Shown: positions 9,174 through 28,690 of the stretch, in pieces | Numbering within the stretch: the stretch's first letter is position 1 | How the letters are laid out: every line of letters begins with the position of its first letter | IMG/VR virus record: IMGVR_UViG_2529293069_000032 | Origin: a virus | Taxonomy: Duplodnaviria > Heunggongvirae > Uroviricota > Caudoviricetes | Strand: one strand, 5' to 3' | DNA: 39,738 nt | Notes under the pieces: model-generated | The model's input: the letters and a program-made list of their open reading frames with translations, nothing else | The model's database searches: none | Told to the model about the DNA's origin: nothing | Translations under genes and position numbers: made by a program

Positions 9174-10133
9174 ATGAAAATTTGTATCGACGACGGCTCC
9201 ACCAACATCAAGCTGGCATGGACTGAGAACGGCGAACGCCGCAACGCCATCAGCCCGAACAGCTTCAAGTCGGAATGGTCTGCGCCATTCGGTGGCACGC
9301 AGCCCGCGAACTACATGCTTGATGGCGTGCGCTATGGTTTTGATCCGGTCAGCGATCGCTTTGTCCAGACGACCGACACGCAATACCAGTACAGCGATGT
9401 GAATGTAATTGCCATTCATCACGCGCTGGTCAAATCAGGCATCACACCACAGGAAGTGGATGTGGTTGTCACCCTGCCACTGAGCGAGTATTTCGATACA
9501 AACGCACAGCCGGACATGGCCAACATCAACCGCAAAAAAGCGAACGTCATGCGCCCGGTGGAGTACCAGAACGGCGAAGCATTCACTATCCGTAACGTAC
9601 GGGTTATGCCTGAATCCATTCCTGCTGGCTTTAAGGCACTGGCTGACATGAGTCCGTTTGAATCCCTGCTGATTGTGGATTTGGGCGGAACCACGCTGGA
9701 TGTGGCAAAGGTTCAGGGGCAACTGGCAGGTATCAGCCAGGTGTTTTGCGATCCACACGTAGGCGTTTCTCTGATGGCCGATGCCGTACTGTCGGTGATG
9801 GCCACTAACGGTATGCGCACCAGTCACCACATCGCCAATACCATTATCGAACATCGCCATGATGAAGCCTGGCTGCGCCAGCACATCCACAATGACGCGC
9901 ATTACGCCAGCCTGATGGCGGTTATTCGTGAAAAGGAAGAAACACTGAAACAACGCGTGATCCGCGCGCTGGCGGTTTTTTCGGGTTACGGGCGGGTGAT
10001 GGTTGTCGGTGGCGGGGCGGAGATTGTGGCACCCGCTATCCGCGAAGCCTGCGGAGTTAATGCGACTTTCATCGCGGACGGGGTGCCACAGTTTGCTCTG
10101 GTTAATGGGTTGTACGCAATGAACAAGGAGTAA
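9174..10133 (+). CDS. parM: ParM/StbA-family actin-like segregation ATPase
   Basis: 319 aa; N-terminal MKICIDDGSTNIKLAW phosphate-1 motif; ISPNSFK, YSDVNV-A-HHAL, NI-RKKAN, VMPESIPAG, LLIVDLGGTTLD, VMVVGGGAE blocks match recalled R1 ParM. Confidence 0.8.
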   Translation: MKICIDDGSTNIKLAWTENGERRNAISPNSFKSEWSAPFGGTQPANYMLDGVRYGFDPVSDRFVQTTDTQYQYSDVNVIAIHHALVKSGITPQEVDVVVTLPLSEYFDTNAQPDMANINRKKANVMRPVEYQNGEAFTIRNVRVMPESIPAGFKALADMSPFESLLIVDLGGTTLDVAKVQGQLAGISQVFCDPHVGVSLMADAVLSVMATNGMRTSHHIANTIIEHRHDEAWLRQHIHNDAHYASLMAVIREKEETLKQRVIRALAVFSGYGRVMVVGGGAEIVAPAIREACGVNATFIADGVPQFALVNGLYAMNKE

Positions 10134-10137
10134 ACCA

Positions 10138-10452
10138 ATGACGACACCAACCAGACGGATAAGTTTCTATCTGAAGCCCGCCGCCGTCAAGAGTGAACAG
10201 GAGGCGTGCAATTACCTCGATAGCCTGCCAGCCTCCGAACGCAGCCGCGCGCAACGCGCGGCCTTTCTGGCTGGGCTAGCACTCATAAAGCGCAACCCAG
10301 CATTTGCCTACTGGATGGCCGAATGGCCAGAGGACAACCTCCCCTTCAATACCGTTAGCATCAAGGAAACATACCAGGCTAATCAGCCTAGCGGAGTTGA
10401 ATGCAATTTTTATAAAATAAAAAAGAATATTCAGACCTTATTCCCAGAATAA
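10138..10452 (+). CDS. parR: ParR-like centromere-binding adaptor
   Basis: 104 aa directly after parM; N-terminal pattern R-I-F-L-P ... LDSLPASERSRAQRAAFLAGLAL resembles recalled R1 ParR. Confidence 0.55.
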   Translation: MTTPTRRISFYLKPAAVKSEQEACNYLDSLPASERSRAQRAAFLAGLALIKRNPAFAYWMAEWPEDNLPFNTVSIKETYQANQPSGVECNFYKIKKNIQTLFPE

Positions 10453-10500
10453 TCTGATAATTGTATGTGAACTAATAAAATACATACCAACACATCATTC

Positions 10501-10523
10501 TGGCACCCTTGCAACAGGGTGCC
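10501..10523. terminator. Bidirectional hairpin between convergent parR and cargo gene
   Basis: GGCACCC-loop-GGGTGCC inverted repeat in the 82-bp convergent gap. Confidence 0.45.
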
Positions 10524-10534
10524 AATGTTTCAAA

Positions 10535-11377
10535 TCATGATGAAATTGCCGAAGTTTTTTTATCGTGCTGAAGTACCGCAAATGCCATTAAAACCTCAAG
10601 AGAATAGCGGCGATAATACTTAACAAAACCATAATAAAATACTCGGGATGCAGCAAGACAAAACAAGAGAAGAAAACAAAAAGGTAACAGCCTGATATTT
10701 ATATCTATTAAAAAGGATAGAGGGAACAGACATATAAGCAACCAGACTGAAGCGAGAAAAACAAATGTAATGTTTCTACAAAAACCATACAAAGCAACAT
10801 AGTTTTGCATTTTCACCTGATGATTTTTAGAATGCTCATACACATAATGATAAGCAAGGCGAAAAAGATCGCCCCTCAAGCCCTTACGTCGATATAGCGT
10901 AGATACAGAAAAAACATTTATATAACCATCTCGTATTTGCGGCCAAAAGACTTTAATAAGTATAGAATGCAGTGTGGTTTTATGATGTTCTGCTTTATCA
11001 AAAACTGATACAGGAAGTAGAAAAACTCCACGAATAAAATGAACTATACTGAACTTAGTATTATGTCGTTTTATTTTCAGGGGACTTCTTTTAGAAAACA
11101 GATAAATTGAAGGATACCCAAGTTTACTGTTCATATATTTTTCAATTAAACAGGATGATAGAATAGATATGAAGTGACCTGAAATATATGACAGAACAAT
11201 TAATACCACATATATAAACACACTTATTATTTCTTTATATTTCAGGATGTGGTTAAAAACACCTTCTATATAAACAGGGTTAATTTCAATAGAAAACAAA
11301 AAAAGGATAAACAGGAATAACCCACCTGGAATTAGATAGCCCAAAAAGTCATAAAATGAAAACGGATTCTGTGTCAC
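10535..11377 (-). CDS. Polytopic membrane protein (cargo gene 2, unknown function)
   Basis: 280 aa; several hydrophobic helices (FLGYLIPGGLFLFILFLFSI, IISVFIYVVLIVLSYISGHFISIL, NITFVFLASVWLLICLFPLSFLI, LLPFCFLLLFCLAA); AT-rich; GTG start after AGGGGGAAG SD. Confidence 0.7.
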   Translation of the reverse strand: MTQNPFSFYDFLGYLIPGGLFLFILFLFSIEINPVYIEGVFNHILKYKEIISVFIYVVLIVLSYISGHFISILSSCLIEKYMNSKLGYPSIYLFSKRSPLKIKRHNTKFSIVHFIRGVFLLPVSVFDKAEHHKTTLHSILIKVFWPQIRDGYINVFSVSTLYRRKGLRGDLFRLAYHYVYEHSKNHQVKMQNYVALYGFCRNITFVFLASVWLLICLFPLSFLIDINIRLLPFCFLLLFCLAASRVFYYGFVKYYRRYSLEVLMAFAVLQHDKKTSAISS

Positions 11378-11416
11378 ACTTCCCCCTGTGTTACTTGTAA
11401 ATTAAAGGGTAAAACA

Positions 11417-11914
11417 TTATTTGTTTTTCCGTAAAGGATTAGCTTTCCATCTTCTTACTAACCATTCGAATTCTTGATATGTAGTATCCGAATTAATGCT
11501 TTCTCTGATTGCTTTAATTAATGGCTCGGCAATATCATATGTCTCTACAACTGTTGTGTAAGATGTTCTTTTTATCATTTTTTCATCATAAATACCTTCA
11601 CGAATACTTACAGCAACTCGCTCGTAAAAATTTAAAATATATTGAAATTTTCGACGCTCGGCCATTTCCTCATCTGTTATTGTACAACCATCACAAGGAA
11701 AAACATAAGAACGAAATGATTTGCCTGAACGATGCACTTGTTTCAGGGTATGCAATGACTCTATATATTGCATATCTTGCCGACTCTCAAAAAGAAAGTT
11801 AGCCGTTTGAGTTTTCTTTGCGGTACGCACATTGTAGATAATGGTTCCAATGGCAACCAAAACGCCAAGCAGAACAATAGCATTGCTGATGATTTGTAGT
11901 GTTATTGGGTTCAT
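11417..11914 (-). CDS. Single-pass membrane protein with soluble C-terminal domain (cargo gene 1, unknown function)
   Basis: 165 aa; N-terminal helix (LQIISNAIVLLGVLVAIGTIIY) then charged soluble domain; AT-rich; 39 bp upstream of gene 2. Confidence 0.7.
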   Translation of the reverse strand: MNPITLQIISNAIVLLGVLVAIGTIIYNVRTAKKTQTANFLFESRQDMQYIESLHTLKQVHRSGKSFRSYVFPCDGCTITDEEMAERRKFQYILNFYERVAVSIREGIYDEKMIKRTSYTTVVETYDIAEPLIKAIRESINSDTTYQEFEWLVRRWKANPLRKNK

Positions 11915-23771: not shown

Positions 23772-25931
23772 ATGAGTACCACAACACGAAAATTTAAAAC
23801 CATTATCACTGATACTGGTGCCAAAAAATTAGCTCAGGCAGCCGCGCCAGATGGTAATCCTGTCCGCCTGACTCACATGGCCGTGGGCGACGGTGGCGGC
23901 ACGTTGCCCACACCAGACAGTAAGCAGACCCGTCTGGTGCATGAGGTGTGGCGACATACTGTTAATCGCGTCATCCTGGACGCAACACATCAGAACCGCA
24001 TTATTGCGGAGCTGGTTATTCCTCCTGAAACGGGCGGATTCTGGATCCGGGAAATTGGTGTATTTGATGAGCACGGCGATTTGATCGCGGTGGGCAATAC
24101 TGCCGAAAGTTACAAACCAACCGTTGCCGAAGGATCCGGACGTGCACAAACATTTCGCACCATTCTGACCGTATCCAGCACTGCCACCGTGGCGCTTACC
24201 GTGGATAACACCATGGTTATGGCCACAGTGGATTACGTGAATGACAAACTGAAAGAACATGAACAGTCACGACGTCACCCGGACGCCTCGCTGACCGCAA
24301 AAGGCTTTGTTCAACTCAGTAGCGCCACCAACAGCACGTCTGAAGCACTGGCCGCAACGCCGAAAGCGGTCAAGGCAGCCTATGACCTTGCTATCGGGAA
24401 ATATACCGCACAGGACGCCACTACAGCGCGGAAAGGACTTGTCCAGCTCAGTAGCGCCACCAACAGCGATTCAGAAACGCTGGCGGCAACACCAAAGGCG
24501 GTAAAGGCAACATATGACCTTGCTAACGGGAAATATACTGCGCAGGATGCCACCACAGCGCGGAAAGGCCTTGTCCAGCTCAGTAGCGCCACCAACAGCA
24601 CGTCTGAAGCACTGGCCGCAACACCGAAAGCGGTAAAGACAGCATATGACCTTGCTAACGGGAAATATACCGCTCAGGACGCTACGACAGCACAAAAAGG
24701 GATTGTCCAGCTAAGCAGCGCGACTAACAGCGCATCTGAAACGCTTGCTGCGACATCGAAAGCAGTGAAAGCAGCTAATGACAATGCGAATGGTCGGGTA
24801 CCTTCTGCCCGTAAGGTGAATGGTAAGGCGCTTTCAGCGGATATAACACTGACACCGAAAGATATTGGTACGCTTAACTCAACAACTATGTCATTCAGCG
24901 GTGGTGCTGGTTGGTTCAAATTAGCAACGGTAACCATGCCGCAGGCGAGTTCTGTTGTTTCAATTACGTTGATTGGTGGGGCTGGATATAACGTCGGTTC
25001 ACCTCAACAGGCAGGTATATCTGAACTTGTTTTGCGTGCAGGTAATGGTAATCCGAAGGGGATTACTGGTGCTTTATGGCAGCGCACATCGGCAGGGTTT
25101 ACAAATTTTGCCTGGGTCAATACATCTGGTGATACTTACGATATTTACGTTGCAATCGGAAATTATGCGACTGGTGTAAATATTCAATGGGATTATACCA
25201 GTAACGCCAGCGTAACGATTCATACTTCACCAGCATATTCTGCTAATAAGCCGGAAGGATTAACGGACGGTTCTGTTTATTCGCTGTATATTTCGCCTCA
25301 TGAACTTTATCCGGTTGGCGCACCGATCCCTTGGCCATCAGATACCGTTCCGTCTGGTTATGCCCTGATGCAGGGGCAGACTTTTGACAAATCTGCATAC
25401 CCGAAACTTGCAGCCGCTTATCCGTCAGGCGTGATCCCTGATATGCGTGGCTGGACGATTAAGGGCAAGCCCGCCAGTGGTCGTGCCGTATTGTCTCAGG
25501 AACAGGACGGCATTAAATCGCACACCCACAGCGCCAGCGTATCCAGTACGGATTTGGGTACGAAAACCACATCGTCGTTTGATTACGGGACGAAAACAAC
25601 CTCACTATTTGACTATGGGACCAAAACTACCAGTAACGCCGGGAGTCACACGCATTCAATACCAACATCAGATGGTGCAAACCAGGGGGGGAAAATTCCA
25701 CTGACATCTGGGCGTCTGGCAACTCAATATACATCAGCAACAACAGGTTCCTCTGGCTCACATTCTCATACTGTAGGTATTGGTTCTCATCAGCACACTG
25801 TCGGTATTGGTGCACACACGCACTCGGTTGCGATTGGCTCACATGGACACACCATCACCGTTAACGCTGCTGGTAACGCGGAAAACACCGTCAAAAACAT
25901 CGCATTTAACTATATTGTGAGGCTTGCATGA
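23772..25931 (+). CDS. H: Tail fibre protein H
   Basis: 719 aa; conserved N-terminal baseplate-attachment region, internal tandem repeats, C-terminal His-box tip ([32 protein letters not shown]). Confidence 0.85.
24300..24790 (+). repeat. About 3.7 tandem copies of a 132-bp (44-aa) repeat inside gene H
   Basis: Units start at 24300, 24432, 24564, 24696 (K-G-[FLI]-VQLSSATNS...TAQDATTA[RQ]); nearly identical at DNA level. Confidence 0.85.
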
Positions 25932-26830
25932 TTACGCTCATTCTTTCTGCACCAGTAACAGAAATGGCTGAAGCATTTAAGCGGGTATTTGCAAACGCAG
26001 ATAATGTGAATATTGTCGGAAAGCCATTTGAAACAATCAGAGAATTTGACTGTATGGTAAGTGCGGCAAATAGTTTCGGCCTGATGGATGGCGGTGTTGA
26101 TGCCGCCATTACCGCATTCTTCGGTACTCAGTTACAGTCCCGCGTTCAGAATCATATTCTTCGTGAATATCTAGGCGAGCAGCCTGTAGGATCTGCGTTT
26201 GTTATTGAAACGGGGCATAATCATCACCCCTGGCTGGTACATGCGCCAACAATGCGTGTTCCGCTGACAATTGACGGAACAGACGCTGTATATAACGCAA
26301 CCTGGGCCGCTCTGCTTGCCATCTTTCAGCACAATAAAAACGCAACGACAGACAGGAAAATAAAGACGGTGGTATTCCCTGCGATGGGGGCTGGATGTGG
26401 TCAGGTACCGTTTGAAAGTGTTGCCCGCCAGATGAAGCAGGCCTGGGATAACTTTAATAAAAAAACAGAATCAATTAACTGGGAATACGCACAATCCCGC
26501 CAGTCGGCAGTATTTGGCACATATGCATACTGTCCGGGTAATTCTGTTTGCCGTTATGCGGATGCTAAATATATTGGATGCGGCGATTATCGGACGTATT
26601 GCTCACGTTCCGGGCAGGTCTGTATTAACCCTGAACATCAGGCTGATGATGTACTGATACAACATCAGGCTAATAACCGGTTTCGCCCTGATTCGCATAT
26701 ACACCGGATTAATCCAGAAAATCCCGTAGGTAATGTCACCTCTGGCGCACATAGCCACAGAAGTAGCATCGTTATTGGTGCTCACACCCATACGCTCAAT
26801 AAACAATATTCTGTCTCTGATATTAAGTAG
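25928..26830 (+). CDS. Macro-domain protein with Cys-rich, tail-fibre-like His-box C-terminus, coupled to H
   Basis: 300 aa; ATGA overlap with H stop; macro signature [18 protein letters not shown] plus [12 protein letters not shown]-terminus [18 protein letters not shown] resembles H tip His-boxes. Confidence 0.7.
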
Positions 26831-26832
26831 AG

Positions 26833-27417
26833 GTGAACATGGATTTCAGAATGAGTGAACAACCACGGACCATAAAAATTTATAATCTGCTGGCCGGAAC
26901 TAATGAATTTATTGGTGAAGGTGACGCATACATTCCGCCTCATACAGGTCTGCCAGCAAACAGTACCGATATTGCACCGCCAGATATTCCGGCTGGCTTC
27001 GTGGCTGTTTTCAACAGTAATGAGGCATCGTGGCATCTCGTTGAAGATCATCGGGGTAAAACGGTTTATGACGTGGCTTCCGGCGACGCGTTATTTATTT
27101 CTGAACTCGGTCCGTTACCGGAAAATGTTACCTGGTTGTCGCCGGATGGAGAGTGTCAGAAGTGGAACGGCACATCCTGGGCGAAAGATGCAGAAGCAGA
27201 AAAACTGTTTCGGGTACGGGAGGCAGAAGAAACAAAAAACAGCCTGATGCAGGTAGCCAGTGAGCATATTGCGCCACTTCAGGATGCCGTAGATTTGGAT
27301 ATTGCGACGGAGGAAGAGGCATCGTTACTGGCTGCATGGAAGACATATCGGGTATTGTTGAATCGTGTTGATACAACAGTAGCAGCGGATGTTGAGTGGC
27401 CAGTCGCCCCACAATAA
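26833..27417 (+). CDS. G: Tail fibre assembly chaperone (gpG/Tfa-like)
   Basis: 194 aa; conserved Tfa N-terminus ([37 protein letters not shown]). Confidence 0.8.
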
Positions 27418-27425
27418 AAAGAAAA

Positions 27426-27451
27426 AGCCATCGACAGAAATATCGATGGCT
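27426..27451. terminator. Bidirectional terminator between convergent G and acetyltransferase
   Basis: AGCCATCGA-loop-TCGATGGCT hairpin flanked by A-run (5') and T-run (3'). Confidence 0.55.
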
Positions 27452-27460
27452 TTATGTACT

Positions 27461-28033
27461 CTATTTATACAATACAACACCACTCTTTTTAGTTATATAT
27501 GTGCAGTTTGATGGTATATCTTTATTTATAAAAGACATTGCACCTATTTTTACATTATCCCCAATTTTACGTGATAATCCAATGATGCAACAATTAGCTC
27601 CGATATCAACGTTACTACCAATTTTTACTCTTGAACTAGGCATATCACCATCTATCTGTCCAATGGTAGTATTCTGTCGTAATACCAGATTTTCACCCGC
27701 ATCAACAGCAAAATGAACAACAATTCCAGCATGATGGGGAATTGTCAACCCTTTTCCAATATTTGCGCCCAATCCTATTTCACAACCAAACTTGTTAATT
27801 ATTTTACTGTTTAACTTTTTGGCTGCTTTCTTATGTAATTTATTACCATTAATATACATTTCGTTAGCCAACCGCCACCAGAAAAGGAAATTCCGGTTAC
27901 GCTGCTTTTTCTCTCTTAAAAGCCTCCAGATATCCATACGTTTCCGCCGAATTACTTCATGTTTCCAGAAGTTTTTTAAATTAGTAGAGTTTCCAAATAA
28001 AACAAAGTGAATTGCCATTAAGTAAGATAGCAC
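27461..28033 (-). CDS. Hexapeptide-repeat (LbH) acetyltransferase, CysE/WcaB-like; cargo in the P2 Z/fun position
   Basis: Track ORF to 28066; probable GTG start at 28031-28033 after TAAGGAG SD; TATAAT at about 28085; repeats IGLGANIGKG ... VKIGSNVDIGANCCIIG ... IGDNVKIGAMS; AT-rich. Confidence 0.75.
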   Translation of the reverse strand: MLSYLMAIHFVLFGNSTNLKNFWKHEVIRRKRMDIWRLLREKKQRNRNFLFWWRLANEMYINGNKLHKKAAKKLNSKIINKFGCEIGLGANIGKGLTIPHHAGIVVHFAVDAGENLVLRQNTTIGQIDGDMPSSRVKIGSNVDIGANCCIIGLSRKIGDNVKIGAMSFINKDIPSNCTYITKKSGVVLYK

Positions 28034-28189
28034 GATAATCTCCTTAATTATTATTTCAGACCACACATGTTATAAGGTTAAGAGATTATAAAATCCTGTT
28101 ATTTGTTATTCAAAAACAATTTTCTGAGAAGGACATACAACAGCAAGTCGCCAGTCACCTTCATCAGGAAATTGGCGACATACGTTAAA

Positions 28190-28684
28190 TCAGAGCAGCC
28201 CCTTAACTGAGCTGGCCGCGCTATTAAGGGATGATGTCACCTTATCTTTGAAGCCGGACAGCATATCGCTGAACGATGAGGATTGCAGGCGCTCCCGCAA
28301 ATCCTCATCACAGCGTTCAAGAGTCAGTGAAAATTCTATCTTTTTCGCCTTACCGTAGCGATCAAACTCGGAGCGGGTCGTATTCGTTCCGGTCAGGACA
28401 TACATGCCGTAAATCTGCCCGACGCCATCAATCAAAGGCCAAGGACGTCCTGTATATGCCTGCGTGGTCAACAACGACAGCGACACTTCGCCACCAGTAA
28501 TCTCAGGATAAAGAACACCAGAAAGAACGATGCGATCATCACCTGCACCGATATACTGCCAGCTTGCTGAACGGTTAACGCGTTCATTTTTCACATGTCG
28601 CCAGCTTTTGTTTTGCTGTAACTGCTGATGCGGCAACGTGCGCAGCTCAAAAACAAACATGCCGTAGATCATCATCATGGCCAT
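28190..28684 (-). CDS. U: Tail protein U
   Basis: 164 aa (P2 U about 159 aa); directly downstream of tape measure on the same strand. Confidence 0.8.
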   Translation of the reverse strand: MAMMMIYGMFVFELRTLPHQQLQQNKSWRHVKNERVNRSASWQYIGAGDDRIVLSGVLYPEITGGEVSLSLLTTQAYTGRPWPLIDGVGQIYGMYVLTGTNTTRSEFDRYGKAKKIEFSLTLERCDEDLRERLQSSSFSDMLSGFKDKVTSSLNSAASSVKGLL

Positions 28685-28690
28685 GACTCC

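Follow-up and report, generated by a model that had tools for sequence, protein, structure and literature searches.

What does a gene for a macro-domain protein do between a phage tail fibre gene and the gene of the fibre chaperone? The question is raised by a stretch of 39,738 nucleotides (nt) from a P2-like Escherichia coli prophage (IMGVR_UViG_2529293069_000032; hereafter the window, to the whole of which all positions refer), in which a gene for a 300-residue product lies between the tail fibre gene H and the tail fibre assembly gene G (Tfa). A sequence-only reading of the window had described the product as a macro-domain protein that is translationally coupled to H and ends in a C-terminus resembling the tip of the fibre protein gpH. 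In order to place this gene, we compared its neighbourhood, its protein domains and its relatives across phage and bacterial genomes, and weighed several explanations of its role, among which a counter-defence enzyme is tentatively favoured. The features of the locus on which the argument depends are the following.

23772..25931, + strand: tail fibre gene H, 719 amino acids (aa), with a P2-type N-terminus, four fibre repeats, a Collar domain and an HxH needle
25928..25931, + strand: ATGA in which the H stop (TGA) overlaps the macro start (ATG), read from the sequence
25928..26830, + strand: macro-domain protein gene, 300 aa, ATG start, TAG stop at 26828-26830
25928..26524, + strand: macro domain proper (Ymx7-like subfamily), aa 1-199
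26069..26101, + strand: loop 1, N48-x6-G55-G56-V57-D58, putative ADP-ribose binding/catalytic loop, from conservation
26387..26401, + strand: loop 2, G154-A-G-C-G158, putative diphosphate-binding GxGxG loop, from alignment and conservation
26525..26641, + strand: Cys-rich beta-hairpin segment, aa 200-238
26642..26827, + strand: fibre-like tail, aa 239-300, with [SA]HxH at aa 256-259, 274-277 and 285-288
26830..26835, + strand: Shine-Dalgarno-like GAGGTG, 3 nt upstream of the G ATG
26839..27417, + strand: tail fibre assembly protein gene G (Tfa, Caudo_TAP; Pfam E=7e-40), RefSeq start

A one-gene cassette between fibre and chaperone genes

The insertion between H and G proved to be literal. In a sister prophage of E. 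coli 2011C-4251, which has the same acetyltransferase, U and T genes downstream, H abuts G (...GCATAATGG...); the two prophages are 98.4% identical up to the H stop and 95.7% identical in nucleotides from the G start, and the macro gene of ~906 bp is their sole difference at H-G. The macro gene is a precise one-gene cassette between H and G. Furthermore, H-end/G-like DNA of ~93% identity without the macro gene was found in 4711 genomes, for example at the K-12 loci stfQ/tfaQ and stfR/tfaR (a methyltransferase seen in this comparison is located after Tfa, on the other strand). Together with the macro-less sister, these stf/tfa loci show that fibre assembly can do without the macro gene and that H and G do not have to be adapted to its presence.

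The ATGA overlap, from which coupling to H had been deduced, was found as a TGA/ATG overlap in 80 of 80 related IMG/VR loci, where the macro open reading frame (ORF) is intact in 79/80, the fibre (ending in ...NYIVRLA) terminates precisely at the macro ATG in 75/75, and Tfa follows the macro gene directly in 69/70. On this pattern the macro gene is predicted to be translationally coupled to H. The true start of G is likely the ATG at 26839 behind GAGGTG, and not the GTG at 26833 of the ORF list. Within the late transcription unit the gene order is V-W-J-I-H-macro-G, and no promoter-like or terminator-like site between H and G exceeds chance. Since the macro gene has no promoter or terminator of its own and a GC content equal to that of the adjoining genes, it is assigned to the late fibre operon, with a predicted translational chain running from H through the macro gene to G.

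The survey of H-G junctions that the sequence-only reading had proposed was carried out as a census of ~235 fibre ends, and all its figures are counts among the matches listed. Fibre ends whose TGA stands in the ATGA context are followed by the macro gene in 81 cases, by Tfa in 35 and by remnants in 2, while fibre ends with a TAA or TAG stop lead to Tfa at all 115 resolvable junctions. No gene type other than macro was seen between fibre and Tfa. For the junctions sampled, we therefore rejected the idea that cargo in general collects between H and G, as what comes after the fibre end is either macro or Tfa.

The arrangement, with which the sequence-only reading was unfamiliar, is by no means rare, as the macro gene occurs in 128 of 5426 complete E. 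coli genomes (2.4%) and in many Salmonella. The copy in the window is 100% identical in O157:H7, O55:H7 and other strains, and its product is identical to RefSeq WP_000631344.1. The trio of fibre, macro and Tfa genes was encountered in lambdoid Gifsy-1, where annotators had noted pfam01661, in the P2-like, plaque-forming phages SEN4/SEN5 and Chuche, in the N15-like linear plasmid prophage pCAVP367-48 (gpJ-lom-stfR-macro-tfa beside sopA/parB), and in a phage with a Mu-type baseplate (L111; Baseplate_J, Mu Gp48). Among the IMG/VR loci, the macro gene is found next to 19 fibre-tip clusters; when only macro genes with at least 94% identity to that of the window are considered, at least 8 tip types remain. 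The family is already in databases, with no function assigned there (PHROG 2613; RefSeq "macro domain-containing protein"), and literature searches returned no paper on the macro-fibre family, its tail, the combination of an enzyme with a fibre needle, or the fixed position.

A macro domain with a Cys-rich and fibre-like tail

Residues 44-169 match Pfam Macro (PF01661) along the entire profile (positions 1-118 of 118) with 68.1 bits (cut-off 22; E=8.2e-19), the three-layer alpha/beta/alpha macro fold was recovered, and AlphaFold2, run on a 146-sequence alignment, modelled aa 1-199 with a predicted local distance difference test (pLDDT) of 94-99. The peptides that had been quoted for the domain and the C-terminus were located at aa 44-61, 148-158 and 273-290. 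Over the full domain, including its N-terminal extension, the closest structural neighbour is Ymx7. PHROG 2613, a group of unknown function, aligns with aa 1-271 (profile 1-272 of 274) at E=7e-149, and the nearest viral structures in BFVD are macro proteins of jumbo phages and giant viruses. More specific assignments were not obtained: Pfam Macro_2 (PF14519) stayed below its gathering score (23.5 bits vs 27, aa 42-112 only), the NCBIfam O-acetyl-ADP-ribose deacetylase equivalogs were not reached (NF001664, 33.9 bits vs 200; NF001660, 21 vs 271), no specific affinity to DarG or Tk.4 emerged (Tk.4 in BFVD: E=6e-5, template modelling score 0.35-0.42), and the PADLOC DarG model gave no passing stretch (E=0.004). 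Likewise, the profile search yielded no match of the macro protein to Caudo_TAP (PF02413) or other chaperone families.

In the alignment of the macro residues that had been suggested, the ADP-ribose-binding loops are intact, with N48, G56, D58 and G158 conserved in at least 90% of 146 homologues and the first three invariant across the close family. Loop 1 contains the MacroD motif N-x(6)-G-G-[VLI]-D in the form N48-SFGLMD-G55-G56-V57-D58, in the definition that Rack et al. reportedly gave in 2016. Loop 2, for which the family consensus is PGxGTGxG, aligns to the 'GTGVG' of TTHA0132, and it lacks the aromatic residue of the MacroD loop-2 motif G-[VIA]-[YF]-G. On these comparisons the protein of the window is classed as a genuine macro domain of the Ymx7-like branch, and it is probably catalytic.

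In a large protein collection, 1712 macro homologues were retrieved at E<=1e-3. The close family (269-300 aa), which often bears the wrong label "phage tail protein", is found in Escherichia, Salmonella, Citrobacter and Erwinia, and an exhaustive representative search returned 2360 relatives, nearly all of them macro-only and ~200 aa long. Such macro-only homologues, up to 64% identical, lie elsewhere in phage genomes. The closest one (P0121; 64% identity, 207 aa, no tail) belongs to another phage, where its neighbours, upstream of the terminase, are ParB_N and methyltransferase genes. Small accessory genes surround the macro-only gene in large metagenomic phages; the contexts of four further homologues were looked up, three of them on contigs too short to inform. 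From its settings, the enzyme core appears to be a general phage accessory gene. The Cys/HxH tail was found only in copies between fibre and Tfa and, because the macro-only homologues lie outside fibre modules, it goes with the fibre location.

The Cys-rich segment, modelled by AlphaFold2 as beta strands at pLDDT 73-80, has Cys at positions 202, 208, 218, 225 and 232, of which C202, C208, C225 and C232 are invariant in the family together with H237; it is presumed to be a metal site or a disulfide knot. Behind it, three [SA]HxH motifs are reached in 1e-4 of whole-protein shuffles and in 2e-5 of shuffles of the C-terminal 105 aa. The fibre protein encoded by H (Pfam Phage_tail_fib, four times Phage_fiber_2, and Collar) has six such motifs at aa 583-690, and the resemblance that had been claimed was upheld against this needle: Smith-Waterman local scores are 64-67 compared with 29-30 +/- 5-6 for shuffles (none of 500 and none of 2000 reached the score), and hhalign pairs the tail with gpH aa ~666-698 at a probability of 90%. 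Similarity of the extreme C-terminus to gpH was not significant, being reached by 281/2000 and 429/2000 shuffles. Further upstream in H, aa ~173-350 (window 24300-24940) consist of four tandem Phage_fiber_2 repeats of ~44 aa each, with strong internal DNA repeats.

The HxH tail is a feature of the family and not peculiar to the copy in the window. In the phage with the Mu-type baseplate, the macro protein (2068-2970, 300 aa) stands between a short Collar-domain fibre and Tfa, and its C-terminal extension is unrelated in sequence to that of the window and again rich in Cys and His (GAHTH, GAHHH, CxC). A profile search of the PDB with the Cys-rich/HxH part gave no match, and a separate AlphaFold2 run of this part alone reached a pLDDT of 47. 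By tblastn against phages (E<=10), the tail retrieved only family members and a remnant in SEN34, and a genome contig scan for the tail outside enterobacteria retrieved only E. coli, Erwinia and one metagenome-assembled genome; by these searches the Cys/HxH tail appears specific to the enterobacterial version of the macro protein. The remnant in the Salmonella phage SEN34 (L004, 5001-5183) is an isolated match to macro aa 184-244 with 57-59% identity, covering the Cys-rich part only; apparently a copy in decay, it stands behind an acyltransferase_3 gene, farther downstream than the genes for fibre and chaperone. An origin of the tail as a leftover of the flanking H was rejected, as homology to the macro-less locus breaks off exactly at the H stop and sets in again with the G start, and DNA similarity between tail and H is limited to matches of 14-15 nt. 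Ratios of nonsynonymous to synonymous substitution (dN/dS) of 0.08-0.15 in the macro core and 0.2-0.5 in the tail indicate purifying selection on both.

A proposed counter-defence role and competing explanations

We tentatively favour the view, which could well prove wrong, that the macro protein is an accessory hydrolase of ADP-ribose (ADPR) derivatives that acts as a counter-defence against NAD+/ADPR-based immunity; catalysis, substrate, trimerisation, Tfa dependence and the defence target are what we infer. Residues 1-199 would bind an ADPR derivative and most likely hydrolyse a distal-ribose substituent (1''-phosphate, acetyl, or a conjugate), while the C-terminal 100 residues would comprise a Cys-rich hairpin unit and one to three fibre-type HxH motifs. 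In gp37-type HxH motifs, iron is coordinated by six His from three chains (PMC11705849). By analogy with the needle of T4 gp37/lambda Stf, in which HxH motifs complete a metal site only in the trimer, the protein is probably a metal-bound homotrimer held through its fibre-type HxH site, and its tail may fold with the help of the neighbouring fibre chaperone. Given the location in the late unit and the chain from H to G, the macro protein would match fibre and chaperone in the timing of its synthesis and would be about as abundant. Late in infection, it could act on alarm signals derived from ADPR, on toxic ADPR-1''-phosphate, or on ADP-ribosyl marks.

Published work gives two leads on the role. 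For the Macro proteins of phages, a function against soluble ADPR signals and toxins has been predicted (PMC9503650), and the T4 macrodomain AdfM neutralises DarTG2 (10.1101/2025.11.20.689424). In Pseudomonas N4-like phages, a chaperone-folded side tail fibre sets how sensitive the phage is to type II Thoeris, the signal of which is His-ADPR (10.64898/2026.06.04.730250). An ADPR-conjugate hydrolase that is co-translated with fibre and chaperone would suit such fibre-triggered, Thoeris-type immunity.

Several points weigh against a counter-defence enzyme. Late expression is unusual for such an enzyme unless the trigger is itself late, and a scavenger of diffusible signals has no obvious need of a fibre-like tail or of a fixed position between fibre and Tfa. 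The strict location could partly reflect homologous recombination via the conserved fibre-end and Tfa-start sequences. The missing MacroD aromatic in loop 2 could mean that the predicted domain binds without hydrolysis. Residues 239-300 are disordered in monomer AlphaFold2 models (pLDDT <50), as expected if the segment folds only in an oligomer. Literature searches gave no biochemistry or genetics on any family member. Finally, since the baseplate-hub gene D of the prophage is split by an IS30-family element, the copy in the window may no longer act in a productive cycle.

A pairing of the macro protein with the neighbouring O-acetyltransferase, as an acetyl-ADPR deacetylase, was discarded, as the acetyltransferase is also present in the macro-less sister, and none stands beside the macro gene in Gifsy-1, SEN5 or pCAVP367-48.

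The most serious competitor, unlikely as we consider it, is a module of the virion, in which a trimeric HxH/Cys needle folded by Tfa docks a macro trimer on the fibre tip, on fibre-retained Tfa or on the baseplate, to act extracellularly on a ribose- or phosphate-containing surface glycan or an O-acetyl group, or merely to be carried on the particle. The statistical likeness of the tail to the fibre needle speaks for it, as does the restriction of the tail to copies between fibre and Tfa. It would also account for the macro gene as the sole gene at the fibre-Tfa junction among the matches listed, for roughly fibre-like amounts as implied by the translational chain, and for a tail that evolves faster than the core, as surface-exposed parts do. 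In addition, Iyer et al. 2022 proposed that Macro proteins encoded among morphogenesis genes are packaged, and argued this for many such phage proteins (PMC9503650). However, tail fibres remain outside the cell, and an extracellular ADPR substrate is not known from enterobacteria. Macro-only proteins encoded away from fibre genes share 40-64% identity and the ligand loops with the core, which argues for an ADPR-type ligand. Near-identical macro genes adjoin at least 8 fibre-tip types and different Tfa variants, so that there is no sign of co-adaptation to a given tip, and H and G are unchanged in the macro-less sister. Moreover, the macro protein has no N-terminal fibre-attachment region, no Collar and no NYIVRLA end, and no virion proteomics were found in the SEN4/5 paper.

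It is likewise doubtful, and a little more so, that the fibre-type tail serves as a functional address, either mounting the enzyme on virion, fibre or Tfa, or making it an antagonist of immunity triggered by the folded fibre-chaperone. In the mounted version, the macro domain would be held on the fibre/Tfa complex or the virion via an iron/HxH needle; in the antagonist version, it would, for instance, hydrolyse His-ADPR or gcADPR made by TIR sensors for side tail fibres. Both versions would account for the finding that, among the matches listed, no gene but macro stands between fibre and chaperone in four unrelated backbones.

Less probable still is that the gene is lysogen cargo or a hitchhiker: an ADPR-metabolite phosphatase or deacetylase fused to a fibre 3' fragment by an old illegitimate insertion, which spreads passively through homologous recombination via the conserved fibre end and Tfa start, with the tail as a tolerated metal-binding appendage. 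A precise one-gene indel with conserved flanks, the shuffling among four phage backbones and 19 fibre-tip clusters, the dispensability of the gene and the ubiquity of the macro core family all fit this account. A relic should decay, yet the tail keeps its four Cys, His237 and HxH at a dN/dS of 0.2-0.5, the divergent Mu-type lineage keeps the Cys/His-rich character, and the ORF is intact in 79/80 loci. Furthermore, the gene lacks its own promoter and differs in this from the acetyltransferase, the true moron that lies 40 bp downstream of G, and no other cargo occurs at the junction among the matches listed.

A required fibre-assembly factor, such as a second chaperone or a gpH maturation enzyme, would suit a gene positioned between the fibre and chaperone genes and coupled to both, but it is very improbable in view of the sister with a 98%-identical H end, a 96%-identical G and no macro gene, of thousands of macro-less E. 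coli stf/tfa loci at ~93% identity, and of the lack of similarity to Caudo_TAP or other chaperone families. That the ORF is a frameshifted or decayed second fibre gene with a macro signature by chance, as the sequence-only reading had itself considered, is scarcely credible, since only the fibre-like HxH tail speaks for it, against a macro fold with pLDDT >94, 79/80 intact ORFs and a dN/dS of 0.08-0.15.

Neighbouring genes, significance and known systems

Outside the fibre module, the following features bear on the state of the prophage and on its accessory genes.

27461-28066, - strand: hexapeptide-repeat O-acetyltransferase (EpsC/CysE/WcaB-like), GC ~35%
33924-36255: gene D (baseplate hub), ATG at 33924, MTDTTMQLL...LTDNRGFEADQL..., interrupted near 34188
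34197-35348, - strand: transposase of the IS30-family element in D, with 37-nt imperfect inverted repeats at 34179-34215 and 35385-35421

The acetyltransferase comes with a promoter-like site of its own (28113-28085) and with a hairpin terminator (27424-27453), stands at what we take to be the position of the P2 Z/fun moron, and is a candidate gene for surface-polysaccharide modification (lysogenic conversion). The C-terminal part of D persists as an ORF at 35512-36255, matching positions 84-304 of Pfam Phage_GPD; with D split by the IS30-family element, the prophage of the window is probably defective. The tail module U-T-E'/E-FII-FI (28190-33765, minus strand) is convergent with V-W-J-I-H-macro-G, a layout that differs from the canonical P2 order and appears to be a lineage trait, as SEN5 (Senquatrovirus) shares it. 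The variable region that separates replication gene A from the portal gene (9174-11914), a place where P2-like phages usually carry accessory or defence genes, contains ParM-like and plasmid-partition genes together with a DUF4760 protein and a 280-aa protein. Between D and ogr lies a gene (36655-37794, plus strand) for a YecA-like protein that bears a SEC-C metal-binding motif at its N-terminus.

Phage macro domains are emerging as players against ADPR-based immunity (DarTG, Thoeris), and none is known to have been tied to a tail-fibre module. The family is common in E. coli of clinical importance, the lineages O157:H7 and O55:H7 among them, and in prophages of Salmonella, for example Gifsy-1. 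If its tail links the enzyme to fibre or chaperone, this would be a new way to place an enzyme at the site or time of fibre production, and a direct handle on NAD+-derived signalling immunity that senses fibre assembly in enterobacteria; as a functional address, it would make the protein the first ADPR-processing enzyme with a physical link to the biogenesis of tail fibres. A protein that does no more than hydrolyse ADPR metabolites in the cytoplasm would be an ordinary addition to a known class.

Among the closest known systems is Ymx7/YMR087W, the yeast ADP-ribose-1''-monophosphatase (PDB 1njr) of the Macro_2-like branch, with an identity of only 21%; the yeast enzyme has neither a Cys/HxH tail nor a phage context. 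With T4 AdfM/Tk.4, the DarG-like antitoxins of chimalliviruses and the Macro proteins surveyed by Iyer et al., the family has in common a stand-alone phage macro domain and the expectation that it reverses or degrades ADPR-based host attack. In contrast to this group, the macro protein of the window comes from a late fibre operon and not an early one, and carries a fibre-type tail; for the surveyed proteins, packaging in the head was proposed and no fibre-Tfa location described (PMC9503650). Like the Z/fun morons of P2, represented here by the O-acetyltransferase, the macro gene is an accessory gene of the fibre region that is present or absent between sister prophages, whereas the low GC, promoter-like site, terminator and opposite strand are the acetyltransferase's and the macro gene has none of them. 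With the needle of T4 gp37, lambda Stf and P2 gpH, the macro tail shares repeated [SA]HxH in a Phi-G-x-H-x-H-x-Phi setting, and some members of the family even share the 9-residue spacing of the fibre motifs (e.g., IGAHTHTIDIGAHNH). Unlike the needle, the macro tail has only one to three motifs and no Collar, receptor-binding tip or conserved end, and its motifs are attached to an enzyme instead of a fibre shaft.

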